A stretch of 64,000 nt of DNA from an uncultured archaeon (GTDB lineage: Archaea > Nanobdellota > Nanobdellia > Pacearchaeales > GW2011-AR1), in contig CAKZRD010000019.1 in assembly GCA_937143345.1 (NCBI GenBank), positions 9,116 through 73,115 of the forward strand, written 5' to 3'. How positions within the stretch are numbered: position 1 is the first letter of the stretch; each line of letters begins with the position of its first letter. Below, one piece after another: positions 26,501-60,572 of the stretch. The position numbers were made by a program, and so were the translations under genes. The notes under the pieces were generated by a model. That model searched no databases, was not told the origin of the DNA, and worked only from the letters and a program-made list of their open reading frames with translations.

Positions 26501-26725
26501 AATATCTACCAAATCTGCTGATTCATAAAAATCAAAAAGCCCTGTTTGTTGATTATAAAATGCTAAATAAACCTTATCTCCAATAATTACATCACCATGA
26601 TAACTTAACATCGATTCTTTTTCATTCGTACTCCCAATTCTAATAAACCAAACCATCGCAACAACAGACAAAACCAACATTAAAACAGAACTTACAGAAA
26701 AAATCTTCGCTATTTTGGTTTTCAT
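23567..26725 (-). CDS. Giant polytopic Cys-rich surface protein with an embedded Hint (intein-like) domain
   Basis: 1052 aa with an N-terminal TM and additional hydrophobic segments. The Hint domain begins CLSSSISLADL and ends VLVHN|S. The C-terminal part is clearly paralogous to the C-terminal half of the 1360 aa protein (shared ...PCSEYRCKSLG...TPWKEVLTEGY... and repeated YYI[KR]C.D..GN modules). Confidence 0.6.
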   Translation of the reverse strand: MKTKIAKIFSVSSVLMLVLSVVAMVWFIRIGSTNEKESMLSYHGDVIIGDKVYLAFYNQQTGLFDFYESADLVDINRKAFSYESLSIDGSSKIPRTERLKDNCLSPKTQISLPYLSDGTYLTDEMLEELNLNLERERLGEMINKKGLGFMQIGMLVLGVVSFAYLIGGMWMVNATEYTIQEANFLDLLSDDLYRQAVSQGINRISIGSDKKIIALYSLGDDGNPNKVFSLVEGNLVQDTSYLKDILGGKTQEVKSPGTCLSSSISLADLSTKPISSIKPGEEVLSYDFETGKLTKEIVRDVIVSWKSEYLIVNKILEITPNHEVLLNGKWQPIGNAVVGDYLQGINSEKVFIESIEKVVLDEPIDVYDLDLGGKWFFAEGVLVHNSGPSGAPTAVSSVGGREVEPTLPPGDHPPRRIPGLGWNITQNQSFFWPVYHLAEGLLWGKVVSEFAGFVAQMAGTDEGQVETIKKAIFFGVTSFNTMRGIMTAKWFGSANEEKSLAQLAAKNKFFSFGEKLGAGFYEKFVPIAIGVGVAWYHYVKNYEKTEKFEERVEFKCLPWQAPHGGEDCELCNHDQLPCSEYRCKSLGQTCAFISQGEKGGICVDNSTREVSPPVITPWKEVLTEGYTYTDVRTSPPGPGFKIIRTEGLNACIKAFSPIQFGVTTNEPAQCKIDLEKKNSFEEMLSFMGGDNTYRKNFTEILHVPRAKDLKNSSLTLEMGKEMTLYLMCRDAKGNLNTVPYSVRFCVDDEPDNTPPQIKAVSVESGSCVTADQNHSLVEFYTDEPAECKWDFNDRTFEQMTYNMSCTQHVFEINSLLLYTCRANLTGVKRDGTDYYIKCKDNPGMPEKERNTMANSFNYKVRGSNHLKIKSISPNNITIYGGISPMPVNLTVETLFGCDNNKATCFYSFTGEQKSFVPFFDTNKADGVSKQRLDLFSGVHKYYIKCIDGGGNLAEAEAQFELEIDTFSPVIARAYHEDDYLKIVTFRRSDCVYSTESCDYLFEEGTLMPYSNSPVHVTAWDNEKTYYIKCRDEFRNEPIGCSLIVRPRKNFLF

Positions 26726-26901: not shown

Positions 26902-29211
26902 TCATCTTTTCTCCTCTACAATAAATTTAATTCCTGTTCCATAATCTCCGAGTGAAAGCCCTTTTTTTGAACTCCCGCCAGAAACAATTCGTTCTGGAAG
27001 ATCTTTTCCAGAAATTTTTTCCCATAGTTTTTGAGAGAAAGATTTTTCTTCTTTTATTTTTTCGTATTTAATTTCTTGAGGAAAACTTAATTTTTCAACT
27101 TTGACCTCTTCCCCATCCCTAGCAATGATTAAATCACCTTTTTTTAATTCCTCTATTTGTTTTAAAGAATATTTTTCTTCGTTTTTTAGCAGAACAAAAC
27201 TTCCTTTATTTATTTCTATTTTATCATTGATTAAAATTTTGTTTTTATTTTCCTTTATAACGAAAGCTGTTCCTCTTTTAGCGTGGCCTTGGTTTATTCC
27301 ACCTAATAAACTAAATGAAGAATTTTTATATTTCCAAGAATATCCATCGTCGGTATATTTGTCATTTATATTTACATTTGCCCCGCAATCTCCGATAGAT
27401 GTACAAATCGCATTTACTTTTTTAGCCCAATCTGCTTTAGGTATAAGCGAATATTCTTTTGAATTTCCAGAGGGTGCTTTTCCGCCTTCCCATTCTAAAC
27501 ACTCGCTTTCAATCTCTATTCCGCTTTCATTAATCATCTTGAAATTATACTCTTTATCTCCAAAAGGTCCAGCTAAACTTTCGTATTTTTCAGTTCTTAA
27601 TATTGTCACCTTACAAACAGCACTTGCTATCTCGCAATTCCCTTGTCCAAGCCAAAATTTATTACCTGGGGGGATTAAAGGAACACAAATTCCTCCCTCG
27701 TCTTCCTCGCTTTTATTGAATTTTGTAACTTTGTTTAAAATATCATAATCAAATTCCCAAATTCCTTTTCCGCTTGAAACAAAAGGTGCTAAAGCATTTG
27801 TTGTTATAACTTTTCCTGCCGACATGGAACCGAAAGCACTGGATGCTTGTTGTGCTAAACCTATTCCTTGCATTGCGTTATCAAAACCTGATTGTTTGCT
27901 TGTTGGATTTTGAAATTGCGAAAAAGAATTTGAAAAAGAAGATTGCTGTTTATTCCAATTTAATCCCTCTACATCATCAATCCAAATACAATCTCTTACA
28001 TCTATATTTTCACAATCTCTCTTTCTCCATTGCTGAACACAATCTTGCCATCTATTTACTCTACAGGCAGCAGTTGAAAATTCTCCAGAAGAAGTTTGGA
28101 TTCCTGAATGTATGCAAATTTGGTTTCTAAAATCAGCACAAGGGTCACTAACGACTTCCCCGTCTATACAAATTTGTCTAAAATGCCTTGAACCAGCTTT
28201 TTCATAGCCCTTTCCTGGCTCTATATCATAAACACACCAGCTCTCACCATTTATTCTTGTTTTTCCACTCATGTCTTTACAGGTTGTTCTTTTACAAATA
28301 AATTCTCCTTCTTTCCCTAGATTTGTTTTCTTCCCATCTTTGCTTGAACAAATACTTCCTAAAAGATAATCACAATTTCCGCAAGAAGTACTTCCGTCAT
28401 TACGAGGACAAATAGTATCTGGGTCTGCAACTCTACCTTTATTCCAGGACTTATCTTTGTTTGAAGAATAAACATTCTCCCTGTTCCCGCAAGAGTCAAA
28501 CCAATAAACTTTTCCTTTGTAGCAACCAACATAATTTTGTCTGGCACATTCTGTATTTAATTCTTCAGCAGAACAAAGAACATTTTTATAAAATTTTTTT
28601 CCTGTTTCTTGCTCTAAAATTGATTTGTTTACATTTAAAGCGATAACTCCATCTCTTGCTCCGCAATCTTTTCTCGTCGTAAATTTACACTCATTAACTC
28701 CTGTTCCTGTATAGGTAACACAAGCCCCCATATCTTGCCCGTTGGCTAAAAAAATACATTCTGATTCGTCAGTTACAGATGTCTTAAACTCCATCGTTAT
28801 TCCAAAGTATGTTGAAAGTTTTTTACATCTTGCTAAAGTAACTAAAGCAGCTTGGTCTGAAATTAAACAACAACCTAGACGACAAGTTGGAAGTTCTGAA
28901 GCAGATTTCTCACTCCAAGTTCCGTTTCTTTCTTGACAGATTTTTTGTGGAACATTTTCCATACAAATTCCTTCCTTTGTGTCATAACAAGTTCCCGTTT
29001 TACAGAAAGAGGTCTGCGCACAAGAAGAAGGAGCTATTCTGAAAGAAGAATCACATTCATTTTCTTGCGCGTTTAAACAAAATCCTCCACTTTTTGTTTT
29101 CTCGCAACAAAAGGAAGGAACAGAAATTATTGCAGAAGAAAAACTAATAAAAAAAAATAAAAATAATAAAAATATTGTTTTATTCATGGATATTCTCCTG
29201 CTGCTGGCCAA
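26902..29211 (-). CDS. Secreted Cys-rich protein
   Basis: 769 aa with a signal peptide. Paralogous to the N-terminal half of the 1360 aa protein: shared CCxxTKxGxxC, GCC motifs, CGNCDY..GSICS, GESWCVYD, GSRHF. Confidence 0.6.
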   Translation of the reverse strand: MASSRRISMNKTIFLLFLFFFISFSSAIISVPSFCCEKTKSGGFCLNAQENECDSSFRIAPSSCAQTSFCKTGTCYDTKEGICMENVPQKICQERNGTWSEKSASELPTCRLGCCLISDQAALVTLARCKKLSTYFGITMEFKTSVTDESECIFLANGQDMGACVTYTGTGVNECKFTTRKDCGARDGVIALNVNKSILEQETGKKFYKNVLCSAEELNTECARQNYVGCYKGKVYWFDSCGNRENVYSSNKDKSWNKGRVADPDTICPRNDGSTSCGNCDYLLGSICSSKDGKKTNLGKEGEFICKRTTCKDMSGKTRINGESWCVYDIEPGKGYEKAGSRHFRQICIDGEVVSDPCADFRNQICIHSGIQTSSGEFSTAACRVNRWQDCVQQWRKRDCENIDVRDCIWIDDVEGLNWNKQQSSFSNSFSQFQNPTSKQSGFDNAMQGIGLAQQASSAFGSMSAGKVITTNALAPFVSSGKGIWEFDYDILNKVTKFNKSEEDEGGICVPLIPPGNKFWLGQGNCEIASAVCKVTILRTEKYESLAGPFGDKEYNFKMINESGIEIESECLEWEGGKAPSGNSKEYSLIPKADWAKKVNAICTSIGDCGANVNINDKYTDDGYSWKYKNSSFSLLGGINQGHAKRGTAFVIKENKNKILINDKIEINKGSFVLLKNEEKYSLKQIEELKKGDLIIARDGEEVKVEKLSFPQEIKYEKIKEEKSFSQKLWEKISGKDLPERIVSGGSSKKGLSLGDYGTGIKFIVEEKR

Positions 29212-29985: not shown

Positions 29986-32900
29986 TTATAAATTAATAGG
30001 TTTAATTATTGCTGAGCATTGATTTAAAATGTTTAGTTTTTTGTCTCTGCATCTTATATAATAAGTTTCATAAGGATATGCTGTAAAGTTATGTGATCTT
30101 GATAAGTATTTTATTTCACTCGGAAGTTCATAGTTACAAAGAGTTGTTTTGTTTGTATTATAAAAGCATTCTGCTTCCTCGTCTGTTTCTAAAGAAAGTT
30201 TTCCATCTTTGTATAAAGCTCTTTGTATTAAAGGAGGAGTTTCATCAAAGAATACTGAAAAGTTAAAAGTTTCTTCTGCAATATTTCTTGCTTCGTCTTC
30301 ACATTTTACATTGATTGAATAATTACCTTGTGGAAACGTGAGTAATTGATTATGTTCTGTTTTACCTGTTTCAAAGAAATTTATGAACGAAGAAGAAAAT
30401 CCGGGGACATTGTAAGAGCAAAATGCGTTTCCTATGCATCCGAAAGTTCTAACAGAAAGAGTGAAATTTTTTTCCTCTATTAAATTTTTTCTATTTAACA
30501 AAGAAATATTTAATCCATCTTTACAAACATTTAAAACATATTCTTTGCTTACAAAATTAATATTTCTTTTATAATATTCTGTTTCTTCTTTTAAATTTGG
30601 TTGGTCATTACATCTAAAATAAAAAGTGTTTTTCCCTTCTGTTAAATTATCAATCTTTGTAAAACAAGTCCATTCTCCGAGGAAAACGCTTTCTTGTGAA
30701 GTTAAACAAGTCATATTGTTAGACATATCATAGAAACCTTCATTTCCGCTAACTACATCATACTCTTTAACAAAACGGCATTCTGCTGGCTCGTTAAGAT
30801 AAAGAATTACGGATGTTGAATTTGTTCCTTTTTTCAAATAAATCCCATTTGGAGGATTAAATCTTCTTAATTCAGCAGGAGTTAGGTCTGGACCTTGTTT
30901 AACTTTAACTTGAACGACAAATTCTGCTTCATTAACTTGACCTGCAAAATTTAAACATCTTATATAATATTCATTTTCTTCTCCGATTGTTAAACCAAGA
31001 GTATTTTTAGATGCGTTTTTGTCTTTTAAAAAACCGGAAAGTGTTATTTTGTGAGTTAATCCATCAGATTTTCCTGTTTCTGGATTAATATCTGAAATCA
31101 TCTCGAATTTCATTTCATCATAGCTTTTTGTGTGTTCATAATCAATCCTACAAGTTGCTGGTTTGTCAGTTTTTATTCCGAAAGTTAAATCTCCCCAAGC
31201 TTCTATTCCTTCGCCGTTTTTTCCAGCAATTCTAAATCCACTATCTCTTACATTTATATAAGAGTAACCTTCTGTTAAAACTTCTTTCCAAGGAGTTATT
31301 TTTGCTTTCCATATCTCGCTTATAGAATAACAATATCCTGGTTCTCCTTTCTCAATAAAGTAATGACAATTGCTTCCCAGTGATTTACATCTGTATTCAG
31401 AGCAAGGTCGGACGTCGTCGTTGCAAATATCGCAGTTTCCATTTTTTGGTGGTTGCCATGCTTCGCATGAGAAAGACATTATGTAATATTCGTATTCATC
31501 AAAACTATCGTCAAAACAATTTTTATACACTGAAGTAGAGATAGCAGCAACGACGGCTACAGCACAGACAGGATTTATAAAACCAGTCGCCCCACAAATG
31601 GTGCCAGTCAACTTAAGAATAACAACGGTTGCTGAGACAAAAACAGTAGACATTGCGGCCATCAAACCCTCGATAAACTTCCTTTCTAGTCCAGGACTCC
31701 AATTTTGATTCTTAGCAATAAGCTTTCCAAGCTGATATCCAACATAAGACCCAATTATTGCTGTGGCTGCCAAGGTTAAACCAGCTTTTAAATTCATCAG
31801 CCAGTTTGGATTTGTAACAGTCGTACTAACTTTTCTAGTTAAACCTAAATATTTCTGAAGCCCATCTAAAAAGGTAGATCCTGTCTCAAAAAAAGGAACA
31901 GTGCTAGTAGTTGTGACGGAAGTTGTTGTTAGGGCCTTCCAACCACCCATCGCCAATCCTGCCATAGTTAATGGCCCAGCAAAATTAACAATTTCCTGCA
32001 AAGAACTAGAAGAGCTTCCAACACTCACGCCCTTAGAGAGTTCATTTAAATCTATAGTTGTCTTATTTATATCACCAGCAGTCCAGGCACTATCTGCAAT
32101 ATCCGCAGACAAACCGGAGGAGATAGATTTGAGATCATTTAATTTTTTAAAAGAAGCAATGGGTTTTTTAAAAGAAGCAATGTAATCTCCTGGAAGAGTA
32201 TAATTACTAATTGAAATATTCCTATTCTCCCCCTTCCTGTCTATCTTGATTCTTTGAACAGAGAAGCCCGGAAAATCTTCATTGACTTCTCCAATTATAT
32301 TTGAAGAAACACCACAACTTCCCAACGCCCTACATCGCTCATTCATTGCAGACATGAGATTAGGTAGATCTTTTGTCTTTATATTAACATTTGCTCCATC
32401 GATATTGCACTCCCAATTTGCTTCATCTTCCCATGGATCGCAGTCTACATCTTCTGGATTTATTAGTTCTGAGATCCCATAAGAATAAGCACAGAGTGTA
32501 GTACTTATCAATCCCTTCAATTGAAGATTGGTCTCATCGACCATCTGGCATTTTCTTTTTACACTAGATATGCAAGTAAAACTCCCCAAACTACAAATTG
32601 CATTTGTTTCTTCATTGCTTCCACCATAATTTGCTGTGGAGAATTGTTTTTGTTTTTGAGAAGGATTATAGGAATCTGAACCTCTTCCTACAATTTTAGT
32701 ATTGGTATTCCAAAATTGAAAACCTGGAGTAAATCTTGGAACACAATGAGCTAAAAGTTTATTTTGGTCTTTTCCTAAATCATCTATTGCACCTTGTTCT
32801 GCATTTGTTTTTTCTGGATCAAAACCTGCAAGAAATTTACCGTCACTTCTTTTTAATTTATCTTCACCATAAAATTCGTTAAACATAATGCATTGTGGGT

Positions 32901-34068
32901 TTTCTTCGCATTTCTTTTCAACTTCAGAATAAGACTCAGCATCATTTGCATTGAGACAACTTCTCCAATCGTTTATTAAGCATTTTGCCTCAGTGTAACC
33001 TGAATCAGTATTTTGAACACAGATTTCTTGCATGAAATCAGCACACCCCTCTATAGAAATTTGACCCTCGAAACAACGAGCAATAAAATGTCTAGAACCT
33101 ACCGGAGCAATTCCTTCTAACGGATTAAAGTCATAAACACACCAGCTTTCCCCGTGCTTTTTGTTGTTGCAATGCAAGCTTTTGCAAACATAATCTCCTA
33201 ACGAAGGTTTTTGCGTTTTTCCTTTCTCGTATTTTGCACAAATACTTCCTCTAACATAATCGCAATTTCCACACGACGGACTTTCAGGAGAACAAGATTC
33301 TTCTGGAGGAATTGGTTTTTCCCAATAGGTTTGATTGTTTGCTTTGGAAGAATCATAAATGTTTGCTACATTACCACAGGAATCAAGAAAATAAACTTGA
33401 TCTCTATCTTCGACACATGTTGTTTTATTAGTTGGTTTACATATTGTGTTTAATTCTTTTGATGTACATAAATAACCTGGTTTAAAATCTCCTGTTTTAC
33501 AATTTTTTTTTGAAGTATAAACGCAGTTTTTTTCTCCTGAAAAATCCCCTGAATCTGAAAGACACGCTCCTAACTCTTCTAAACCGATATATTTTTCACA
33601 ACTTTCCCCACTCGAAAAAGGAATAAATTTTTTTTCAAAATTATATTTATTCGAAAGAAGAGTACACTCTCTCGAATTAACTAAAGAAACTTGGTTTCCA
33701 AGGATACAACAACCTAATTGACATTGTGGAATGTTGCATGAAATATCATCGCTCCAATTCCCTCCATTTTCTAAACATTTTTGTTTTGGCGACCTTAAAG
33801 AGCAAGTTCCTGTAGAAGAAGAATAACAACAACCAAGTTTGCATTCACCTACTGAAGAGCATTTTGTGGCAAATAGGTTTTCCTTACACAAATCTGCTTG
33901 AAAAAAAGGAATATCTTGGCAAATGGCTCCTTCTTTTGTTTCTCTACAGCAGCCTTTGAATGAGTCGGTTTGTGCGGAAACTAATTCTCTTTCTGAAATT
34001 AAATAGGCAAAACTAAATATTGCTAAAATCAATATTAAAATTTCTAAAAAAGCAATTTTTTTTTTCAT
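29986..34068 (-). CDS. Giant (1360 aa) Cys-rich surface/membrane protein, fused version of the 769 aa + 1052 aa pair
   Basis: Signal peptide. N-terminal Cys-rich region paralogous to the 769 aa protein. Central multi-TM hydrophobic region. C-terminal repeated beta-rich modules ending YYIRC.D..N, paralogous to the 1052 aa protein. No Hint domain. Confidence 0.6.
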   Translation of the reverse strand: MKKKIAFLEILILILAIFSFAYLISERELVSAQTDSFKGCCRETKEGAICQDIPFFQADLCKENLFATKCSSVGECKLGCCYSSSTGTCSLRSPKQKCLENGGNWSDDISCNIPQCQLGCCILGNQVSLVNSRECTLLSNKYNFEKKFIPFSSGESCEKYIGLEELGACLSDSGDFSGEKNCVYTSKKNCKTGDFKPGYLCTSKELNTICKPTNKTTCVEDRDQVYFLDSCGNVANIYDSSKANNQTYWEKPIPPEESCSPESPSCGNCDYVRGSICAKYEKGKTQKPSLGDYVCKSLHCNNKKHGESWCVYDFNPLEGIAPVGSRHFIARCFEGQISIEGCADFMQEICVQNTDSGYTEAKCLINDWRSCLNANDAESYSEVEKKCEENPQCIMFNEFYGEDKLKRSDGKFLAGFDPEKTNAEQGAIDDLGKDQNKLLAHCVPRFTPGFQFWNTNTKIVGRGSDSYNPSQKQKQFSTANYGGSNEETNAICSLGSFTCISSVKRKCQMVDETNLQLKGLISTTLCAYSYGISELINPEDVDCDPWEDEANWECNIDGANVNIKTKDLPNLMSAMNERCRALGSCGVSSNIIGEVNEDFPGFSVQRIKIDRKGENRNISISNYTLPGDYIASFKKPIASFKKLNDLKSISSGLSADIADSAWTAGDINKTTIDLNELSKGVSVGSSSSSLQEIVNFAGPLTMAGLAMGGWKALTTTSVTTTSTVPFFETGSTFLDGLQKYLGLTRKVSTTVTNPNWLMNLKAGLTLAATAIIGSYVGYQLGKLIAKNQNWSPGLERKFIEGLMAAMSTVFVSATVVILKLTGTICGATGFINPVCAVAVVAAISTSVYKNCFDDSFDEYEYYIMSFSCEAWQPPKNGNCDICNDDVRPCSEYRCKSLGSNCHYFIEKGEPGYCYSISEIWKAKITPWKEVLTEGYSYINVRDSGFRIAGKNGEGIEAWGDLTFGIKTDKPATCRIDYEHTKSYDEMKFEMISDINPETGKSDGLTHKITLSGFLKDKNASKNTLGLTIGEENEYYIRCLNFAGQVNEAEFVVQVKVKQGPDLTPAELRRFNPPNGIYLKKGTNSTSVILYLNEPAECRFVKEYDVVSGNEGFYDMSNNMTCLTSQESVFLGEWTCFTKIDNLTEGKNTFYFRCNDQPNLKEETEYYKRNINFVSKEYVLNVCKDGLNISLLNRKNLIEEKNFTLSVRTFGCIGNAFCSYNVPGFSSSFINFFETGKTEHNQLLTFPQGNYSINVKCEDEARNIAEETFNFSVFFDETPPLIQRALYKDGKLSLETDEEAECFYNTNKTTLCNYELPSEIKYLSRSHNFTAYPYETYYIRCRDKKLNILNQCSAIIKPINL

Positions 34069-41860: not shown

Positions 41861-43054
41861 ATGAAAAAATATGTTATTTTTGCTTTAAAAAGTTTAAAAC
41901 AAAGAGGAATAAGGAGTTGGCTTACTTTAATTGGTATTATTATTGGTGTTTCGTTAGTTGTTTCTCTTTTTCTTCTTGGTGATGGGTTGGGGTTGGCGAT
42001 TTCCTCACAATTCGGAATTTCTTCTACTGAAATAATTTCAGTTACTGCTGGAGGATTAAATGCCTTTGGCCCCCCAGGAACACTTGTTTCAAATCCTTTA
42101 ACAGAAAAAGATTTAGAGGAAATTGAAAAAACTTCTGGAGTAAAAAAAGCTATAAAAAGGTATATAAGAAGTGCTGAATTAGAATATAGAGAAAAAAGGG
42201 ATAGGATTTTTTTAACAAATATTCCTGAAAAAGAAAATGATTTTTTGTATGAACTCCTCGACTTAAAAATAGAAAGAGGGAAATTTATTTCTGGAGATGA
42301 AAGTGGGAAGGCAATGATAGGTTATAATTTATTTAAAAATAAAAATCTTGATGTTGGAAACAAAATAAAAATAAATAATCAAAGTTTTGAGATTGCGGGT
42401 GTTTTAAAAAGAAAAGGAAGCTTTATATTAGACGGCATAATTTTTATTTCTGAAAAAGATTTAGAAAAAATCTCTGAAGACAGAAATATAAATGTTATAG
42501 CAATAAAACCATATTCTTCTGACGAAATTGATAAAGTAAAAGAAAATATAGAAAAAACACTAAGAAAGATAAGAAATGTAAAAGAAGGAAAAGAAGATTT
42601 TCAAGTATCCACTCCTAAAGCTACTTTGTCTAATATAAACAATATTTTATTTGGAGTTAAAATTTTTGTTGTAATAATCGCTTCAATCTCTATTATCGTT
42701 GGCGTTATAGGAATTACAAACACTATGACTACTTCTGTTTTAGAAAGAAGAAAAGATATCGGAATAATGAAGGCAGTTGGTGCAAAAAATTCTCAAATTT
42801 TTCTTTTGTTTTTTGTTGAATCCGGTCTCTTTAGTTTTTTCGGAGGATTGGTTGGAATAATTTTAGGAGTTGGGTTTGCACATATTGGAACAATCTCAAT
42901 CGGTAAATTTCTAAATGTAGAAATTCCACTAAAGATTGATTTTCTTTTCTTAATTTTTTCATTGATTGGAAGTTTTCTAATAGGTGCTTTTGCCGGCACA
43001 AATCCTGCGTTGAACGCTTCTAAATTAAAACCAATAGAAACCCTAAGAGAATAA
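41861..43054 (+). CDS. ABC transporter permease, MacB/FtsX-like
   Basis: N-terminal TM, large periplasmic-type domain, then a C-terminal 3-TM FtsX-like block (ITNTMTTSVLERRKDIGIMKAVGA). Confidence 0.75.
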   Translation: MKKYVIFALKSLKQRGIRSWLTLIGIIIGVSLVVSLFLLGDGLGLAISSQFGISSTEIISVTAGGLNAFGPPGTLVSNPLTEKDLEEIEKTSGVKKAIKRYIRSAELEYREKRDRIFLTNIPEKENDFLYELLDLKIERGKFISGDESGKAMIGYNLFKNKNLDVGNKIKINNQSFEIAGVLKRKGSFILDGIIFISEKDLEKISEDRNINVIAIKPYSSDEIDKVKENIEKTLRKIRNVKEGKEDFQVSTPKATLSNINNILFGVKIFVVIIASISIIVGVIGITNTMTTSVLERRKDIGIMKAVGAKNSQIFLLFFVESGLFSFFGGLVGIILGVGFAHIGTISIGKFLNVEIPLKIDFLFLIFSLIGSFLIGAFAGTNPALNASKLKPIETLRE

Positions 43055-43062
43055 TAAAAAAC

Positions 43063-44343
43063 TAAGGGATTAATCTATCTCTGTCCCTTGAAAACATTGT
43101 AGCTTCCTTAATATTATCCAAACCACATATTATTTGAGTAATTCTCTCTAAGCCTATTGCCCAACCAGAATGAGGTGGAGCACCAAATCTAAAACTATCA
43201 ATATAATTTTCAAAGTTCTTAGGATTCATCACTTTAGCCTTTTAATCTTGCGATAAGCAATTCTGGCAAATGAATTCTCTGCTAACCTGAAGAAATCTCT
43301 ACTACCACGCAATATAAACTATCAAAACCCTCGCTTACTTTTGCTTTAGGATCTTCTCCTTTTGGCATTATGTAAAAAGGTTTAAGACTTGACGGCCATG
43401 AATGAACAAAAACTAAATCCCCTGGATACATCTCACATAATTTTTTTCTTGTTCTGGAGTAAAATCTTCTCCAACTTTTCCCCTAACTTTTTTATTCCTT
43501 CTTCATAAGTCAAATAAATTCCTTTTGGGACTTTTAATTTAACTCCAAGAATTTCAAGTTCTTTTTTACAATTCTCAAGTATTTTAGTAACAATAAATTT
43601 TATGCATCCTTCTTGCTCTTGCATAATTTGCATTTGGTTTGTAAAAGCAGCTTCTACATCAGGCATTCTTATCTCATTAATGTGCCTTGTTGTATTATGT
43701 TTTTCTGCTCTCCATGCAGGTCCAATGTAAATGTCTTTTCCATAGAACAAGCAAGCATCTGCTTGTAAAGTTGAGGAGATTGAGCCATAAAAGCTTTTTT
43801 CTCAAAATACTTTACTTCAAATAATTCTATTCCACCCTCGCTTGCAGCAGAAATCATGTAAGGCTGTTGAATTTCAATATAACCTTTTTCATAAAAATAT
43901 TTCCTGAAACTATTTGCTATCTCTGTCTGTATTTTAAAAATAGCCTGAACTCTTTCCCTATGAAAATCTAAAAACTTATAATCCAATCTCTTAGGCATTT
44001 CTGTTTTTGAAAAATCAGAAACATCGATAGGAAGTTTTTCCTCAGCCGAATTTACAAGCTCAATTTTTTCCAAGCCAATTTCTTTTCCTCCGGGAGCCTG
44101 CTTAGAATCTTTAATTATTCCTTCAATATAAACAACAATTTCCCTATTAAGTTTTCCAATTTTCTCAAACTCTGCTTCAGGAGTTTCTCCCATAAAAACA
44201 ACACATTGCATTTTTCCTATTAAATCTCTTAAAACCAAAAACCTAACTTTTCCTAAGGCCCTGGTATCATTCACCCAGACAGCTAGTTTTACCTTCTCTC
44301 CTGCTTTTTTCTTAAATGCTTCTGAAACTTTTATTCTTTCCAT
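43063..44343 (-). pseudogene. aspS: Aspartyl-tRNA synthetase (class IIb), disrupted by at least four frame changes and an in-frame TAG
   Basis: The N-terminal OB anticodon-binding domain and motif 1 are in one frame (..FRKYFYEKGYIEIQQPYMISAASEGGIELF..AQSPQLYKQML). Motif 2 (GPAWRAEKHNTTRHINE) and the following segments (GEDFTPEQEK, then KLCEMYPGDLVFVHSWP..KPFY) lie in shifted frames. ..EISSG is followed by an in-frame TAG before QRIH. Motif 3 ([18 protein letters not shown]...[10 protein letters not shown]) needs a further shift. Most shifts map to G or A homopolymers. Confidence 0.55.
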
Positions 44344-44987
44344 GTTTTATACTTCTTTTTAACTTGTAAGCTAAGGATTTCCATTTAAAAATTGAATATG
44401 CTCCAAGAAGACCATTCCGCGAACAGTAAGATCGAAGTCCAGGTACCTATAGCCATCATCATCAAACCCATATAAGCTCCCGCACCCAAACCCTTCTTTT
44501 CCTTAACAATTCTCGCGGCTTCTGTTTCAACCTCACTCAAGCCTATTTTTTCAACACCCAATGCTTGCTCGGGTTTCGCGCCTTTAACAACTTGCTCAAG
44601 AACATGTTTACATCACTCTCTACAATCTTTTTATCGCTAATAGCTTTCAAAACTTCTTCAAAAACATCCATATCAAGTTTTTCTTCTACCTTTTCAAGCT
44701 AAATTAGTATCTCTAAATTTTTTCGTAAATAATTTATTTTTCTTTCTCTACCCCCTTGTTTCGTGGTCCTATCGACTTAACTTCTCTCTCGCTACTTCAT
44801 GAATTTTCATAGAAAAAATCCAATCAGGAAATCCAATCAAGACATTATTTCTCAGCACACCCCGACATCTACAAAGCAATTTTCTTGTATCAAGCTGTTG
44901 ACGAATTTTCAAACCAACCCTTTTTTCTACTTTCTTAAATTTAACTATGATTATACTTAAGAAAGAAATTAATAAAACAGCGATGCT

Positions 44988-46268
44988 TTAATCCATAGAA
45001 CTTTTACAATGAAGGCCGGGTAAACTACAAACTTCATTAATAATTTCTCTGGTCTGATTCTCATCCAGCGGTACATGTAACACTGATGAATGGGTTTGAT
45101 ATGGTCGGATTTCTCCAGAATTAGTTTTTCCATTATCTTTATGCAGATTAAAATCCAAACATCTGTTTATTTGTTGATCTTTGGCATATTTGATAAAACT
45201 AAGTCTTCTTTGTCTGAATCTTTCTCTATTAGCTATATCTAAAGCTTCTCCACGATAAAAAAAATCAGCTAACGCTGCATCTATTCCTGCATAAACTAAT
45301 CCCATAAAAACCCCAAAATGCTTTCTGTTTGGTCCTTCCGGATCTATAAACCAACTTCCTGCACCTAAAAAAAACGGCATATCTCTCCTATCTAAAACTC
45401 TTCTTTGAGATTCTCTCATAATTGAAGGGTAAACTTTTGCCGATACCCCGAGTAAAGAAGAGTTAGTATCTTCAGAAACAATTTTAGGAATAGGATATAA
45501 AAACGTATACAAATTAGATATTGTCTGACGCTCTCGAAGATATTGTGAATATTTTACATTATTATCTAACTTTCTCCCATTTTCATCGATTATTAAAAAA
45601 GCATGCGGAACAAGAGACTCTGACAAACCTGATTTTTCTATATAAGAGTACATCGCTAAGGAACTAAAAGCTTTAAGAATTTCATTGCAAGCTCTTCCAG
45701 AGATAACAGTATCAATTATAGAAAAAGAATCTATTCGGGGAAAAGCTTCATACATTTCAGCTATCCGACCCCTATCTTCGATTCTCCTTAAAATAATGTC
45801 TGTAAAGGATCTAAAAAAGGGATCGTAACTTCTGCCTCGAGAATCTTTAAATAAAGAAGCAGTAACTCCAGCCCAATACTGCCTTGTTTTTTTTACAAAT
45901 TCATCATTATTAAGGGTGGGATCAAACTTCTTAACATTTAAATCCGCAGTAAACGGAATCAGTAATACTCTAGTCTCTGCATCATGCAAATTTGTATTGG
46001 GATAAATTGTTTCAGGCAACAATGGTGTTAATATTGGTTGAACTGCAACATTCTCAGAAAATCTAGCTGCCTCCGAACTAATTCCTCTGAGTTTGTCCAT
46101 AGCATAAAGTGTACCTAAAAAAAATGGCAGCGAGCCCCTACTTGGAATAACTAAAGTGTTAAAATATCCTTTCTTGTATCTAGTCTCTGCTAAGTCTATA
46201 GCAAGATTCACGCAAGCTTGTGAATATGCAAACATATTCTGCTCGCTAAAAACTTCATCTAAAGACAT
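44988..46268 (-). CDS. Hypothetical protein with N-terminal phosphoribosyltransferase (PRTase)-like domain; function unknown
   Basis: 426 aa. PRPP-binding-loop-like FSIIDTVISGRACNEIL (phi4-D-T-phi-phi-S-G) and upstream LVIPSRGSLPFFLGTLYAM. Arg-rich composition unlike neighbouring genes. Sits in a GC-elevated island. Confidence 0.4.
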   Translation of the reverse strand: MSLDEVFSEQNMFAYSQACVNLAIDLAETRYKKGYFNTLVIPSRGSLPFFLGTLYAMDKLRGISSEAARFSENVAVQPILTPLLPETIYPNTNLHDAETRVLLIPFTADLNVKKFDPTLNNDEFVKKTRQYWAGVTASLFKDSRGRSYDPFFRSFTDIILRRIEDRGRIAEMYEAFPRIDSFSIIDTVISGRACNEILKAFSSLAMYSYIEKSGLSESLVPHAFLIIDENGRKLDNNVKYSQYLRERQTISNLYTFLYPIPKIVSEDTNSSLLGVSAKVYPSIMRESQRRVLDRRDMPFFLGAGSWFIDPEGPNRKHFGVFMGLVYAGIDAALADFFYRGEALDIANRERFRQRRLSFIKYAKDQQINRCLDFNLHKDNGKTNSGEIRPYQTHSSVLHVPLDENQTREIINEVCSLPGLHCKSSMD

Positions 46269-46734
46269 AAGGCGTAACTCCTCTTTCAGTTCCTACATTT
46301 AAATCTAAAATGGATTCAACCGTGGATCTGAATTTTCCAACTTCAAAACATTCCTTCCTGATAACACAGACAACATTACCATAGTTTCTCCAGTTAGCAG
46401 GGGGATTTTGAGCAAGAAATAAACATTTTGCATCTGGATAAAGAGTCCTTATTACCTCTAGTATCTGCCTCCAAGAAGTATCGTCTGGTGAATTGTTTAC
46501 TCTAAGAGGTAAATGTCTGTCACAAATATAAAGATGAGCAAAAGGATACTCTCTTTCGCGAAAAGAAGTCATATCTCCTATGGGTACCATTAGTTCTACA
46601 CCTAAAGACAAAGCTAAAGCAGATTCTACTTTTTTCTGCCAATACACACTATCTTCTATATGTAATACTTTTTTCATTTTAACTCCAAAAAACAAAAGAA
46701 TGAATTTACCTGCTTCGTGATATCTTTTATCCAA
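46255..46734 (-). CDS. Hypothetical protein, possibly a divergent CheY-like receiver fold
   Basis: The probable true start is MKKVLHIEDSVYWQ. LYICDRHLP and CLFLAQNP resemble REC strands 3/4. Weak. 14-nt overlap with the downstream PRTase-like gene. Confidence 0.3.
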   Translation of the reverse strand: MDKRYHEAGKFILLFFGVKMKKVLHIEDSVYWQKKVESALALSLGVELMVPIGDMTSFREREYPFAHLYICDRHLPLRVNNSPDDTSWRQILEVIRTLYPDAKCLFLAQNPPANWRNYGNVVCVIRKECFEVGKFRSTVESILDLNVGTERGVTPYVFR

Positions 46735-46916
46735 GATTTATCTAAAAGACTTGGAGCAACTATTGCAACAGAATCAGCACTCTCATTAACAGTGGTTAAA
46801 CAAACTTGAAATAGTGCTCTACCAAAATCCCAAGAAGAGGTAAGATTTAGACTATTTGCTTCAAATCTCTCTTCTAATTCAGACCTAATAAATATTCTAT
46901 CAAACATTATATCCAT
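46674..46916 (-). CDS. Small hypothetical protein, first listed ORF of the island operon
   Basis: 80 aa, no motif. An ATG-less ORF fragment lies directly upstream on the same strand. Confidence 0.2.
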   Translation of the reverse strand: MDIMFDRIFIRSELEERFEANSLNLTSSWDFGRALFQVCLTTVNESADSVAIVAPSLLDKSWIKDITKQVNSFFCFLELK

Positions 46917-47279
46917 AAAAAGAACTGCCTTTTAAATCTTTCTATTTTGTTGTTTCTTAATAGAAGTGACAAAAGACAATAGTTATAAACTCTTTTTCCT
47001 CTTAAAATTTATAGGGGATAATTATTACAGAAAAATAGGGAGAGTATTGAGCCAGTGTTCCAACGCTTATAACTTTTATCTGAAGTAAATATCTTTCTGT
47101 ATGAACACTATCAACCCTCAAAAGATTAGCAAATCCATAATTACCAATATTAGAATGAATGCAAGGTTCGACAGACAAATTTCCTTTCCGAAGAATTTCT
47201 TTAAAAATGCAATATTTGAGATTATAAACTTGCTCAAAAACTGAATGACTTATCCTCTTTTAAACTTAATTATAATAAT

Positions 47280-48542
47280 ATGCCGGAAACCAACAACTAT
47301 TTAAGCTTTTTTCTTATTGAGAATATGAAGAAAATGATAAAAAAAGAGAATATAAAATACGTTTTAAGGAATCTAAAAAGGAGAAAAACAAGAACTTTTT
47401 TAACTTCTCTTTCTATTCTAATAGGTGTTGCGACTATATTTATTTTTATTAGTTTTGGGGCAGGACTTTACGAATATATAAATGAATTAACCTCTGGTTC
47501 TTCTGTAAATAAGATTATTATTCAACCAAAAGGTTTTGGTACTGTTGGTTTATTTGATAAAAAGATTCAATTAACAGAAAAAGATGTGAAGATTACGGAA
47601 AATATTCCTGGAGTAAAAAGGGTTAGCCCATTATACTTCGGTGTTGCAGAAGTATCTCAAGAAAAAGAAAGGATTTATTCGTTTATACTCGGTTATGATG
47701 CTGAAAAACCCTTAATCTTTGAAGTATCGAACATCGGTTTAGAAAAGGGAAGATTTCTTCAAAAAGGAGAAAAAAACAAAGTTCTTTTGGGATACAACTA
47801 TATGGTAGAAAATAAAATTTTTCCGAAAAAATACGATATAAATCAAAAAATAAAAATAAATAATGAAGAAATGCAAATTGTTGGCTTTATTCGAGAAATA
47901 GGAAACCCTCAAGACGATGCACAAATATATATAACAAAGGAATACTTTGAAGAAGTTTATCCAGAAACAACTAGTTATAGTTGGATTATAGCAGAAGGAG
48001 ATATAAAAGAAATTGATTCTATAGTAGAAAAAATTGAAAATAGATTAAGAAATGAAAAAAACCAAAAAAAAGGAGAAGAAACTTTTTTTGTGCAAACCTT
48101 CGACGATTTGATAAAAACATATCTTTCTGTTTTAAATATAATTATTGGTTTTGTAATATTAATTGCTTTAGTTTCTGTTATTGTTTCTGCAATAAACACT
48201 TCTAATACGATGATAACTTCTGTTTTAGAAAGATATAAAGAAATAGGGGTAATGAAAGCAACTGGTGCAAAAAACACTGAAATTTTATCTATTTTTGTTT
48301 TTGAATCATCTTTAATAGGGTTTATCGCAGGAATTTGCGGGGTTTTGCTTGGTGCTTTTTTAAGTTTCTTAGGAGAAAAAATTCTAACCAACCTGGGTTG
48401 GAGCTTTCTAAAGCCGTTTTTTTCTCTTTGGCTCTTTGTTGGTTGTATTTTATTTGCGACTTTAACTGGGGCCATATCTGGAGCGTTACCTGCGATTCGC
48501 GCCTCGAGAATTAATGTAGTTAATGCTCTGAAATATGAATAA
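47280..48542 (+). CDS. ABC transporter permease, MacB/FtsX-like; paralog of 41861..43054
   Basis: Same architecture. Conserved block NTMITSVLERYKEIGVMKATGAKN. Confidence 0.75.
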   Translation: MPETNNYLSFFLIENMKKMIKKENIKYVLRNLKRRKTRTFLTSLSILIGVATIFIFISFGAGLYEYINELTSGSSVNKIIIQPKGFGTVGLFDKKIQLTEKDVKITENIPGVKRVSPLYFGVAEVSQEKERIYSFILGYDAEKPLIFEVSNIGLEKGRFLQKGEKNKVLLGYNYMVENKIFPKKYDINQKIKINNEEMQIVGFIREIGNPQDDAQIYITKEYFEEVYPETTSYSWIIAEGDIKEIDSIVEKIENRLRNEKNQKKGEETFFVQTFDDLIKTYLSVLNIIIGFVILIALVSVIVSAINTSNTMITSVLERYKEIGVMKATGAKNTEILSIFVFESSLIGFIAGICGVLLGAFLSFLGEKILTNLGWSFLKPFFSLWLFVGCILFATLTGAISGALPAIRASRINVVNALKYE

Positions 48543-48648
48543 AGTTTTAAAAATCTTAAAGAGATCATTTTTAATTTAAAAAACCACACAATAATTTTTA
48601 AATCATTTTTTATCCTGAGAGAAATAAATGATAAATAAATTTTTTCTA

Positions 48649-49485
48649 CTAAAAAATTTTCTTTTTTCTTTTCTTTTTGTAAATCAAGAAAGAAATAATA
48701 AGAACAAAAGAAATTGCTAAGATTATATAAGTATTATATGATTTTCCATTTTTCTTTGTGTGTTCAAAAAAAGAAGGGTTAAAAATTATTTCTTTCTCCA
48801 CGCTCCTTCTTTCTCCGATTTTATCGATGTAACTGACTATCATTTTTATCTTTCCATCAAAAGGAATTGCTGTAAAGTCTGTCGAAGTGTAGTCTCTTGA
48901 ATCTAAATCTCCAACAATGTTTTTATTTCCTCCGAGAATTTTTATATTTTCTTGTTGAGGAACTTCCAAAATTAAAGAATAAACATCTTTTTTTCCAAGA
49001 TTTATTATCTCTAATGTTAATCTTTTTGTTGAATAATCATAATTTTTTACGATAACATCAAAATCTGCTTTGACTTCTTCTATTTTTATCGAAAAATTTT
49101 TAACAATTTTAAAATCTGTTTGTCCTTTTGTTGAATATGAAATCTCTATTTCACTATCTCCATCTATTGCATCTTTATCTATCCTCACTTTATAAGGAAC
49201 AATCCAATTTGAGCTAAAACCTCTTGAAAAAGTACCTGAATTCATTTTTTTTATAGACACAAATTCTGGCTCAAAAATCAAAGGATAATTTCTTAAAAGT
49301 TCCAAAGTTATTTCTCCGCAAGAAGGTGAACTTATCTCAGAAACAACAAAAACAAGCTTAACATAATCTCCAGGAACAGCAGGGTAAGGGTCTTGGTTTA
49401 ATAAGGAAATTTTTGGATTACATTCTGATGCTGTACTAAATATAATTGCAAAAACTAGAATAGCAAAAAACAAAATTTTTCTCAT
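48649..49485 (-). CDS. Secreted surface protein with C-terminal TM and poly-Lys tail (CARDB/DUF11-like beta-rich)
   Basis: Signal peptide, beta-strand-rich sequence, C-terminal TM + KKKRKKK. Confidence 0.4.
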   Translation of the reverse strand: MRKILFFAILVFAIIFSTASECNPKISLLNQDPYPAVPGDYVKLVFVVSEISSPSCGEITLELLRNYPLIFEPEFVSIKKMNSGTFSRGFSSNWIVPYKVRIDKDAIDGDSEIEISYSTKGQTDFKIVKNFSIKIEEVKADFDVIVKNYDYSTKRLTLEIINLGKKDVYSLILEVPQQENIKILGGNKNIVGDLDSRDYTSTDFTAIPFDGKIKMIVSYIDKIGERRSVEKEIIFNPSFFEHTKKNGKSYNTYIILAISFVLIISFLIYKKKRKKKIF

Positions 49486-49755
49486 ATAAGGTTAAAAAAA
49501 AGGCAATTTATAAACTTTATTAAATCTTTATGTTTGTTTCTTTTATCTCTTTTGAGTGCTGGTCAAACTCACCTTTAATAAGACAATCAAAACATATTTT
49601 AAAAGTCCCATCTTTTTCTTTTACTCTACCAGTTCCCTTACATTTTGGACAATTCTTGTTAACCATATTTTTTCATAAAAAAACTCGATTAAAAAGGTTT
49701 TCTATGTTTTAATATAAACCAACAAATTTAAAAATGGGTTATTTTTTTATTTTTC

Positions 49756-49980
49756 ATGGCTAAAAAATGTATTTATTGTTTAAAAGAAATAGAAGAAGAG
49801 TTTGTAGTTGATATCTGTGAAAAGTGTATGTATAGGGTGTGGGGACCTAAAATGTCTGAAGCAATAATTTCCTCAATGACAAAAGAAAAAGAAAAAGGAA
49901 ATTTGGAATTAGGTGTAGTTAGCGAAGAAGCAAAAGAACTTTTAAAGACTGATTCTTTTAAACCAAAATTAAATAATTAA
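49756..49980 (+). CDS. Small zinc-ribbon protein
   Basis: CIYC...CEKC pair in a 74 aa ORF. Confidence 0.35.
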
Positions 49981-50014
49981 AAACCTTTTTAAATCGAAAA
50001 AAACAAGTTCTAAA

Positions 50015-50269
50015 ATGACAAAAAGAAAACAAAGCATTAGAAAAAAAGGGAAGATTTCACTTAGTGAATACTTTAAAAAATTAAATATGGGGGAAGTTGT
50101 CTCAATAAAAAAAGAAGCAAATATAAATTCTTCTTTCCCTAATAGAATTAGCAGTAATTTAGGAAAAATAGTTGGTAAAAGAGGGGCATATTTTCTTGTT
50201 GAAATAGGGAGCGGAAAAAAATCAAAAGAGTTCTTAATACATCCAATTAATTTAAGGAGAACAAAATGA
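50015..50269 (+). CDS. rpl21e: Ribosomal protein L21e
   Basis: RKKGKISLSEYFKKLNMGEVVSIK...GKRGAYFLVEI matches the L21e pattern (kkG.iplS.yl..f..Gd.V.I ... G.tG.V). Conserved position before rpoF/COG1491. Confidence 0.65.
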   Translation: MTKRKQSIRKKGKISLSEYFKKLNMGEVVSIKKEANINSSFPNRISSNLGKIVGKRGAYFLVEIGSGKKSKEFLIHPINLRRTK

Positions 50270-50574
50270 TAAAAGAAAAAATACCAATAACCATCGCAGA
50301 AACTATTGAGATAAGTGGGGAGAAAGAAAAATCAAAAAAATTAAAGAGTTTCATGAAAGAATTTAAAGATTTTACAATTTTAGACAAAAAGAAATCAGAT
50401 GAGCTAAAAAATAAACTAGACTCTTTGAACATATACAAATTAAATGAAGAAGCGATCGTAAGTCTAATTAATTTCATACCTAAAGATGCGCAAGATGTAA
50501 TGAAGATATTGCCAGAAATTTCACTAAATCTGGAAGAAATAAACAAAATATTGGGTGTTTTTAAGGAGGTTTAA
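50266..50574 (+). CDS. rpoF: Probable RNA polymerase subunit F (Rpb4-like)
   Basis: Size (102 aa), HRDC-like C-terminus (KLNEEAIVSLINFIPKDAQDVMKILPEISLNLEEINKIL), and the conserved L21e-RpoF-COG1491 gene order in archaea. Confidence 0.4.
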   Translation: MIKEKIPITIAETIEISGEKEKSKKLKSFMKEFKDFTILDKKKSDELKNKLDSLNIYKLNEEAIVSLINFIPKDAQDVMKILPEISLNLEEINKILGVFKEV

Positions 50575-56146: not shown

Positions 56147-57610
56147 ATGGGAAGAGAAGAAGAAGTTGTAAAAATAAGAATTGAAAAAATAGAAAGAATG
56201 AAAAAAGAAGGCTTTTTGCCTTATGATTATCGTTTTGATACTACGAGTAATATTATTCAAATAAGAGAAAAATTTTCTGAATTGAAAGAAGAAGAAACAA
56301 AAGAAAAAGTTTCTATCTCTGGAAGATTGATGAATATTCGTTCTCTTGGAAAACTTTCTTTTCTAAAAATACAAGATTACTCTTCGACAATTCAGGGAGT
56401 AATACAAGAAGGAAAGACTCCTAAAGAAAAAATAGAATATTTTAAAAAATTTGTAGATAGCGGCGATATAATTGGAATTATGGGAAAAGTTTTTAGGACA
56501 AAAACAGGTGAGCTTTCTGTTCTCATAGAAGACATAAGAATTCTCTCTAAATGCATTTTGCCGATTCCGGAAGAATTTTATGGTTTAAAAGACAAAGAAG
56601 AAAGATATAGAAAAAGATATCTTGATTTATTAATAAACGAAAAATCTCGAAGAATTTTCCAAATAAGAGCAAAAGTTATGGAAGCAATAAGAGAATTTAT
56701 GAAAGTTAAAGGTTTTATTGAAGTTGAAACTCCTTTATTGCAACCAATTTATGGCGGTGCTGCAGCAAAACCTTTCAAAACTCATTGTGATGCTTTTGAT
56801 AGTAATGTTTTTCTTTCCATTGCGCCAGAACTTTATTTAAAAAAAGCAATGGTTGGGGGATTGGGGAGTGTTTATGAAATAACGAAAAAGTTTAGAAACG
56901 AAGGAGTAGACAAAAACCACAATCCAGAACATATGACAATAGAATGGTATCAAGAAAATGCCGACTATAATGATGGAATGAAATTGTTCAGAGAGTTTTT
57001 ACTTTTTATATCTGAAAAAGTATTCGGTAAAACGACTATTGAATACAAGGGACATAAAATTGATTTAACTAAATGGGAAACGCTTTCTCTTGAAGACGCA
57101 ATAAAAAAATATCTTAATATTGACATCTCAAAAATAAAAACCGATGAAGAAGCAAAAAAAATTGCAAAAGAAAATGGTTTAGATGAAAGCAAGATAACAA
57201 AAATAAATCTGCCAGATGAATTAATGAAAATTTTTAGAGAAAAATTAATACAGCCCACTTTTTTAATAGATTACCCGATAGAACTTGCTCCTCTTGCAAA
57301 ACCTTCCAAGAAAGATCCTAAAAAAGCAGAAATTTTTCAGCCATTTATTGGTGGTTTAGAGGTTGGGAGAGCTTATTCTGAATTGAGTGATCCTTTCATT
57401 CAAGAAGCTTCCTTTGATGAACAAGAAAAAGAAAGAGAGAAAGGAAACGAAGAGGCAATGCCGACAGACAGAGATTTTATAACAGCTCTAAAATACGGTC
57501 TTCCTCCGGCTTGCGGGGTTGGAGTAGGAATAGAAAGATTAATGATGTTATTTACAGATTCTGAAACAATAAGGGATGTAATAATGTTTCCTTTTATGAA
57601 ACCTGAATAA
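56147..57610 (+). CDS. lysS: Lysyl-tRNA synthetase, class II
   Basis: N-terminal OB fold. Motif 2 FRNEGVDKNHNPEHMTIEWY. Motif 3 region GVGIERLMM. 487 aa. Confidence 0.88.
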   Translation: MGREEEVVKIRIEKIERMKKEGFLPYDYRFDTTSNIIQIREKFSELKEEETKEKVSISGRLMNIRSLGKLSFLKIQDYSSTIQGVIQEGKTPKEKIEYFKKFVDSGDIIGIMGKVFRTKTGELSVLIEDIRILSKCILPIPEEFYGLKDKEERYRKRYLDLLINEKSRRIFQIRAKVMEAIREFMKVKGFIEVETPLLQPIYGGAAAKPFKTHCDAFDSNVFLSIAPELYLKKAMVGGLGSVYEITKKFRNEGVDKNHNPEHMTIEWYQENADYNDGMKLFREFLLFISEKVFGKTTIEYKGHKIDLTKWETLSLEDAIKKYLNIDISKIKTDEEAKKIAKENGLDESKITKINLPDELMKIFREKLIQPTFLIDYPIELAPLAKPSKKDPKKAEIFQPFIGGLEVGRAYSELSDPFIQEASFDEQEKEREKGNEEAMPTDRDFITALKYGLPPACGVGVGIERLMMLFTDSETIRDVIMFPFMKPE

Positions 57611-60454: not shown

Positions 60455-60572
60455 GGATGAGACAACTTTGTGCCTTCCCGCTTATTCAGCAGTACAAACA
60501 CAAACGTCCGAAGCTTAACTTCTGTGTTCGGAAAGGGAACAGGTGTTACCAACGGACTATGGTCGTCTCAAA
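60455..60572 (-). rRNA. rrf: 5S ribosomal RNA (orphan, not linked to 16S/23S)
   Basis: The reverse complement reads UUGAGACGACCAUAGUCCGUUGGUAACACCUGUUCCCUUUCCGAACACAGAAGUUAAGC...GUUGUCUCAUCC. It has the universal CCGAACAC..GAAGUUAAGC loop C/helix III region, a helix I closing 5'-UGAGACGAC/GUUGUCUCA-3', and a following T-run. Confidence 0.85.

Follow-up and report, generated by a model that had tools for sequence, protein, structure and literature searches.

A probable pair of adjacent pseudogenes, remnants of gatE and aspS, in an AT-rich DPANN archaeal genome

Aspartyl-tRNA synthetase (AspRS) is universally required, and its non-discriminating form charges both tRNA-Asp and tRNA-Asn. The archaeal-type non-discriminating enzymes (NF003483/TIGR00458; class IIb) found in Woesearchaeota, Pacearchaeota and Nanoarchaeota metagenome-assembled genomes (MAGs) have an OB fold, the motifs 1-3 and a gatE gene upstream. 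This gene encodes the E subunit of the Glu-tRNA(Gln) amidotransferase GatDE (GatE: NF003107/TIGR00134), the archaeal signature route to Gln-tRNA-Gln in a domain of life long known to lack GlnRS (PMC2330236, PMC2943598). Here we describe remnants of both genes, which we call psi-aspS and psi-gatE, on the minus strand of a 64,000-nt stretch of archaeal DNA (contig CAKZRD010000019.1 of assembly GCA_937143345.1, positions 9,116 to 73,115), hereafter the window. psi-aspS resembles the archaeal-type enzymes in its OB fold, its motifs 1-3 and the gatE upstream, but it is broken four times, carries a stop and has had active-site glycines replaced; it is a relic and not a functional member of the family. 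psi-gatE, in turn, resembles GatE in its N-terminal ~90 and C-terminal ~100 residues and in its position upstream of aspS, but about 300 central residues are missing, and stops, frameshifts and an EIH to KIR change have accumulated in what is left.

Two other described situations come close to this one. Genomes with two AspRS are known: Thermus thermophilus and Deinococcus radiodurans have a second type alongside the amidotransferase route (PMC4206432). Together with the displacement of aminoacyl-tRNA synthetases by horizontally acquired copies, they provide a precedent for the situation that would make one AspRS copy dispensable, with the difference that in these bacteria both copies are functional and specialised, whereas here one copy is dead and the second is only presumed. 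The other likeness is to the poly(A)-tract frameshift pseudogenes of the Buchnera/Blochmannia type, with which psi-aspS shares AT-richness (29% G+C) and two 1-nt losses in A tracts. Its stop, its shifts outside slippery tracts and its catalytic substitutions go beyond slippage, however, and make a functional rescue implausible.

According to our analysis, the region 43062-44984 (minus strand) very probably consists of two adjacent true pseudogenes, left by a gatE-then-aspS cluster that decayed at its native locus, most likely after another copy elsewhere had made it redundant. Judged by sequence, the pair is predicted to encode no working enzyme, because aspS is interrupted by four frameshifts and a stop and has lost glycines of its active site, and gatE lacks about 300 codons. 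The cluster belongs to a Woesearchaeota/Pacearchaeota-type (DPANN) archaeon: the close homologues of the repaired AspRS all come from Woesearchaeota, Pacearchaeota or Nanoarchaeota MAGs, and the source organism is therefore a DPANN archaeon. Taken alone, the pair is nothing out of the ordinary: pseudogenes are well known, and only the genes hit here are unusually important.

The AspRS reading of psi-aspS (43062..44343, minus strand) was recovered by three-frame translation of the minus strand, by tblastn and by DNA alignment to the intact orthologue in the related locus L001. The gene is a full-length remnant of an archaeal-type non-discriminating AspRS, comprising the OB fold and the class II core, and a complete protein of 426/427 amino acids could be read from it by combining all three frames. 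After conceptual repair, the 427-aa protein matched PF01336 (OB-fold anticodon-binding domain) at 1.2e-10 and PF00152 (class II core) at 1.2e-69. Only after repair did it match NF003483, aspartate--tRNA(Asn) ligase, with 458.6 bits against a cutoff of 353. Its best intact homologue, P0001, is 86-88% identical. A preliminary description of this DNA had proposed a decayed aspS with at least four frameshifts in which all AspRS domains could still be found, and the translation, tblastn, the DNA alignment and the NF003483 match all bear this out. An AspRS is normally encoded in a single open reading frame (ORF) of about 425-450 codons; in psi-aspS, gene callers give pieces of 224, 77, 49 and 55 aa instead. 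The longest of them, the 224-aa ORF (675 nt; 43669..44343, minus strand), is truly homologous to AspRS, over the OB fold and the N-terminal catalytic part, only as far as 43726, and its tail is out-of-frame read-through.

The lesions were mapped on a DNA alignment with the intact gene of P0001 (L001:10001-11281) and eleven other orthologues; all coordinates are on the minus strand. The first is a 1-nt deletion at 43725..43726 (ACA-TTGGACCT against ACACTTGGACCT), which falls after ..SMEKTFTL and before GPAWRAE of motif 2. The second is a 1-nt deletion in a poly-A tract at 43488..43493, where psi-aspS has A6, seen as T6 on the plus strand, and its relatives have up to A7 in the multi-species DNA alignment; repairing it restores the reading KKVRGKVGEDF. 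A third 1-nt deletion, again in a poly-A tract (43441..43447; A7 here, A8 expected), is repaired to EQEKKLCEMY. Lesion 4 (43297..43311) combines an in-frame 3-nt insertion, a GTA-GTA repeat, with G>T changes, so that the conserved LYGGVE has become LYCVVVE. The substitutions in this active-site segment, LYGGVEISSGGQR, are G346C and G348V, and the second of the two glycines is invariant in 120 of 120 homologues. Lesion 5 is the in-frame TAG at 43282..43284, which takes the place of the Gly in EISSG-G-QRIH, likewise invariant in all 120 homologues; the change from GGN to TAG requires at least two substitutions. Finally, lesion 6 is a 1-nt insertion (in A4 or GG) at 43238..43243, between ..IARLK and AKVMNPKNF. 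psi-aspS thus departs from the near-invariant catalytic residues of AspRS in the LYGGVEISSGGQR segment and others, while at every lesion site the 120 homologues and 12 orthologous DNAs run through in a single frame.

These positions refine the earlier picture. The amber codon in EISSG-TAG-QRIH had been taken for a substitution, and it does replace an invariant Gly. The first junction, placed after QMLACS, was a few codons off, the alignment putting the deletion after ..SMEKTFTL. The shift drawn between KKLGEK and GEDF in a run of G was also a few codons off and assigned to the wrong type of run, and KKVRGKVGEDF fits the relatives much better. Overall, where three shifts in GG(G) runs and one in an A7/A8 run had been proposed, the alignment places two of the four in long A tracts and the other pair in short runs. 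The damage also extends beyond what had been listed, to the 3-nt insertion, the Gly>Cys and Gly>Val changes and a dead gatE.

The remnant of this gatE, psi-gatE (about 44371..44984, minus strand), lies directly upstream of psi-aspS and was delimited by alignment to the GatE of L001, whose intact gene (L001:8507-9985) scores 482 bits on NF003107. The N-terminal ~90 residues are found at 44703-44984, where residues 14-89 can still be recognised, although two in-frame stops interrupt them and EIH has become KIR. The middle of the gene is gone: residues ~90-390, that is ~300 codons or ~900 bp, were removed by a deletion at about 44690-44702. The C-terminal ~100 residues (~391-492) are scattered over three frames. 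A GatE carries a GatB_N-type catalytic core and a YqeY-like tail in one ORF, and no such ORF is left here. The statement that every other gene in the window is intact consequently fails for this neighbour, with its stops, frameshifts and ~900-bp deletion, and holds for the rest of the window. Besides, on a low-coverage contig of a related Pacearchaeota MAG (cov 4.5 in its name; L028:1992-3397), gatE matches occur in two different frames, which may reflect a frameshift introduced in assembly or a further gatE in decay.

One could argue that the breaks are artefacts of sequencing or assembly, and that the cell carries an intact gene whose assembled sequence was spoilt by homopolymer errors, low coverage or a mixed-strain consensus. 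Two of the four shifts do lie in long A tracts, the other two being in short runs, and the window comes from metagenome assemblies, a kind of record in which public versions may share reads. We compared the window with other public versions of the locus. The NCBI record DAINBH010000001.1 (GCA_036733025.1) and the JGI contig Ga0209721_1001799 (3300025104) both cover it and align to the window without gaps, and the 7-11 single-nucleotide polymorphisms (SNPs) that separate the JGI 3300025104 contig from the window include none within 43060-44980. Counted by record, and always without gaps, the window shows 1-2 SNPs relative to the NCBI record, 1 relative to the ENA contig k141_56636, 11 relative to JGI 3300025104 and 5 relative to JGI 3300010288. 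Given its 1-2 SNPs to the NCBI record and 1 to the ENA contig, the window is yet another consensus, and the SNPs scattered among the records point to a low-diversity population that was sampled several times. The k141 prefix suggests that the ENA contig is a MEGAHIT short-read assembly. One of the SNPs affects ribosomal protein L21e: at position 50208 the window has G, which codes for Gly, where the NCBI record has A, which codes for Glu.

The fragment ORFs of 224, 77, 49 and 55 aa occur verbatim in NCBI, in JGI/IMG and in ENA (k141_56636, 147,480 bp), and some of them in Logan and GEM too. No intact allele closer than P0001 (86-88% identity) was found among 5.8 billion clustered proteins. P0127-P0129, which cluster with the 55-aa fragment, were considered as intact alleles and rejected: they belong to other species and merely share the conserved C-terminus. 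The lesions of psi-aspS are real and reproducible across assemblies, and they are not sequencing errors. Against an artefact we thus count the identical lesions in NCBI, JGI, ENA, Logan and GEM versions that differ by SNPs and not by indels, and also the nature of the damage, as the ~900-bp gatE deletion, the GGN>TAG change and the Gly>Cys and Gly>Val replacements are not homopolymer errors. The window, moreover, contains 277 A/T runs of at least 7 nt, yet no further broken gene. Together with the excess of amino-acid changes described below, which includes the unshifted N-terminal half, these observations make an artefact very unlikely. As for the choice that the preliminary description left between genuine pseudogenisation and homopolymer error, low coverage or strain heterogeneity, the first part stands, and the second does not in view of the same lesions across assemblies, the excess substitutions and the gatE deletion.

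To contextualize the lesions, we polarised the differences between the repaired window protein and P0001 with 39 outgroups. The window lineage showed 27 specific amino-acid changes against 7 in P0001 (binomial p = 8e-4), so that at the protein level psi-aspS has changed at roughly four times the pace of its sister. Of its 27 changes, 15 led to residues unseen in the 39 outgroups. At the 159 columns conserved to at least 97%, the window protein deviates 8 times (G22V, S69I, R123K, T172I, G346C, G348V, G355stop and P419S), compared with a mean of 0.76 and a median of 0 for the 120 homologues. Fifteen of the 27 changes, G22V, S69I, R123K and T172I included, fall within the unshifted N-terminal 224-aa ORF, and this fragment is therefore not kept as a functional AspRS domain. 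At the nucleotide level there were 63 window-specific changes against 39, with GC>AT changes numbering 21 against 3, a pattern expected from neutral drift in an AT-rich genome. As judged from these substitution counts, psi-aspS shows relaxed purifying selection relative to its functional orthologues.

These data also bear on a further explanation, that recoding by transcriptional slippage or programmed ribosomal frameshifting at the A tracts, together with stop read-through, restores a full-length AspRS, or that the product of the 224-aa ORF still serves on its own as an OB-fold protein that binds tRNA. Two shifts are indeed 1-nt deletions in A6 and A7 tracts, and polymerase slippage in AT-rich endosymbionts is said, in work by Tamas and colleagues in PNAS in 2008, to rescue such A tracts. 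It also fits survival of an N-terminal protein that all disabling lesions are in the C-terminal half, with a 675-nt ORF left. But slippery tracts are absent at lesions 1 and 6, and the frame moves forwards at some sites and backwards at others, while a programmed site would be expected to be single and conserved, and all homologues are uninterrupted at the psi-aspS sites. Read-through is opposed by TAG being a normal stop in this genome. We considered its reassignment as a sense codon and rejected it, since TAG terminates 4 of the 47 long ORFs in the window and no other gene is interrupted. Even a perfect recoding would leave the invariant catalytic glycines replaced. Regarding the N-terminal part, its 15 lineage-specific changes, 5 of them at near-invariant positions, correspond to a rate no lower than that of the C-terminal half. 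Both versions of this explanation are, in our estimation, extremely improbable.

The surroundings of the pair were compared with those of intact gatE and aspS genes. In L001-L006, gatE precedes aspS by no more than 2 kb, and the same holds for 11 of the 18 related genome loci; a twelfth has it downstream, on the opposite strand. Directly upstream of psi-gatE there is an intact gene for a conserved DPANN hypothetical protein of 426 aa (44988..46268, minus strand). A homologue of this gene sits upstream of gatE in the related locus L023, and we have therefore marked the locus as native. Further on, between divergent genes, a 74-nt intergenic element (46928..47000) is 80% identical to L001:7955-8028, which is upstream of the gatE-aspS cluster there. 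With its two TATA-like boxes (TTTATAA and TTTAAAA) and no Rfam match, it probably represents an archaeal promoter that is conserved and works in both directions. Its occurrence in both the window and L001 supports orthology of the locus. Taken together, the gatE-aspS order, the 426-aa homologue and the 74-nt element, all common to relatives, favour in-situ decay of the ancestral cluster.

An extra gatE-aspS copy from a related DPANN lineage could, on the other hand, have decayed here at a non-native locus, the native functional copy never having been lost. In agreement with this, the G+C content of psi-aspS (33%), psi-gatE (35%) and the 426-aa ORF (34.5%) is above the window mean of 29% and near the 35% of L001, and P0001 is found in a different downstream gene context. 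Conversely, other conserved genes of the window are likewise richer in G+C than average, the upstream context recurs in relatives, with the 426-aa homologue present in L023 and the 74-nt element in L001, and no second, closer copy was found in the protein database. An acquired extra copy is in any case a variant of our explanation rather than a true alternative to it, and we regard it as rather unlikely when set against decay of the native copy. The surroundings of the psi-gatE/psi-aspS block showed neither repeats nor ends of mobile elements. The block is bracketed by two MacB/FtsX-type ABC permease genes (41861-43054 and 47280-48542, both on the plus strand), old paralogues that are 33% identical.

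If the pair decayed in place, both genes would be drifting without protein-level selection, through small indels, one large deletion and mostly radical substitutions, and two of the small indels may have arisen by slippage in the long A tracts. Most likely, a second copy at some other place in the genome would have assumed the function, which would have made the psi-gatE/psi-aspS copy redundant. This could be a further gatE-aspS unit, arisen by duplication or horizontal acquisition, or else an AspRS of a different kind combined with another Gln-tRNA route (GatCAB or GlnRS). Both neighbours are dead together and their products are normally indispensable, so another functional copy or route is the most economical assumption.

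Some observations weigh against this explanation. The sequence available to us amounts to about 72 kb of the genome, the ENA contig extending the window by 8 kb after its end and 2 kb before its start, and neither the 64-kb window nor the 8 kb past its end yielded a second AspRS, an AsnRS or another gatE. Scanning the GTDB representative genomes with the repaired protein gave 18 related loci, none of them from the source genome. Candidate replacement AspRS proteins did not lead back to it either: P0048, P0033, P0050 and P0072 were traced to other assemblies or samples, and P0090 could not be linked to the source MAG, none of those examined among its 22 contigs coming from the samples of this organism. 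In addition, the public assemblies in which we found the same lesions may in part derive from overlapping read sets. P0001 itself is unlikely to be a paralogue in the same genome, because its contigs stem from a different sample set. Within the window, tblastn detected a sole other class IIb enzyme, at 56147..57610; it was considered as a second AspRS or AsnRS and rejected, as NCBIfam identifies it as LysRS.

Such results would also be obtained if AspRS and GatE had been lost with no replacement, leaving the cell to receive Asp-, Asn- and Gln-tRNA, or the enzymes, from a host or partner. DPANN archaea are typically host-dependent, the pseudogenes are at the native locus, and no substitute gene occurs in about 72 kb. 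This is, however, just the visible part of the genome, and we know of no cellular organism devoid of AspRS; the organism would be the first. The genes for IleRS, MetRS, LysRS and CysRS are intact, and the translation apparatus is therefore being maintained. Furthermore, aminoacyl-tRNA synthetase genes are a universally conserved single-copy core of Nanobdellota (bioRxiv 10.64898/2026.05.13.725050). We consider a true loss highly improbable.

Decay of the pair after takeover by another copy, our preferred explanation, has some implications. A dead gatE and a dead aspS at the seemingly ancestral locus of a compact DPANN genome would imply that part of the core translation machinery was recently replaced, through gene displacement or duplication of the operon; outsourcing of the AspRS and GatE function to a host is far less likely than that. 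The pair would be noteworthy in itself only if the rest of the genome held no replacements. It also matters for genome quality, since in automated pipelines AspRS and GatE will count as missing from this MAG, or the MAG itself as riddled with frameshifts, although the assembly is correct at the locus.

The protein encoded by the 426-aa gene upstream of psi-gatE had no Pfam, NCBIfam, PADLOC or PDB-sequence match. Its 112 homologues are all from DPANN-type MAGs and share invariant PSRG..P and DT..SG.A motifs. The AlphaFold model has a predicted local distance difference test (pLDDT) score of 92, and a Foldseek search of it against the PDB returned nothing at E<=1e-3, with only a faint resemblance to phosphoribosyltransferases such as HGPRT.

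Regarding the rest of the window, it is AT-rich (29% G+C) and has a coding density of 91%. No broken gene was found in it outside psi-gatE and psi-aspS, and the remaining gaps are taken up by 2 tRNAs, a 5S rRNA and the promoter region. Rfam gave no match in 42000-50500, and in the rest of the window only these 2 tRNAs and the 5S rRNA. As previously described, three other aminoacyl-tRNA synthetase genes are intact, which NCBIfam assigns to IleRS, MetRS and class II LysRS, and an intact CysRS gene follows in the 8 kb past the window end on the ENA contig. Four very large ORFs are all on the minus strand, at 79-2706 (875 aa), 23567-26725 (1052 aa), 26902-29211 (769 aa) and 29986-34068 (1360 aa); for the first three, NCBIfam gave no match at 1e-5. 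The 5S rRNA gene (60457-60570, minus strand; 67.3 bits in Rfam) stands alone between rpoN and the RuBisCO gene, in a window with no 16S or 23S gene. The gene content also includes ribosomal proteins, archaeal replication genes, an intact form II/III-type RuBisCO (60971-62455, minus strand; NF010002, 634 bits) and an intact phosphoenolpyruvate (PEP) synthase (16588-18831, plus strand), the last two being typical DPANN nucleotide-salvage and carbon genes.

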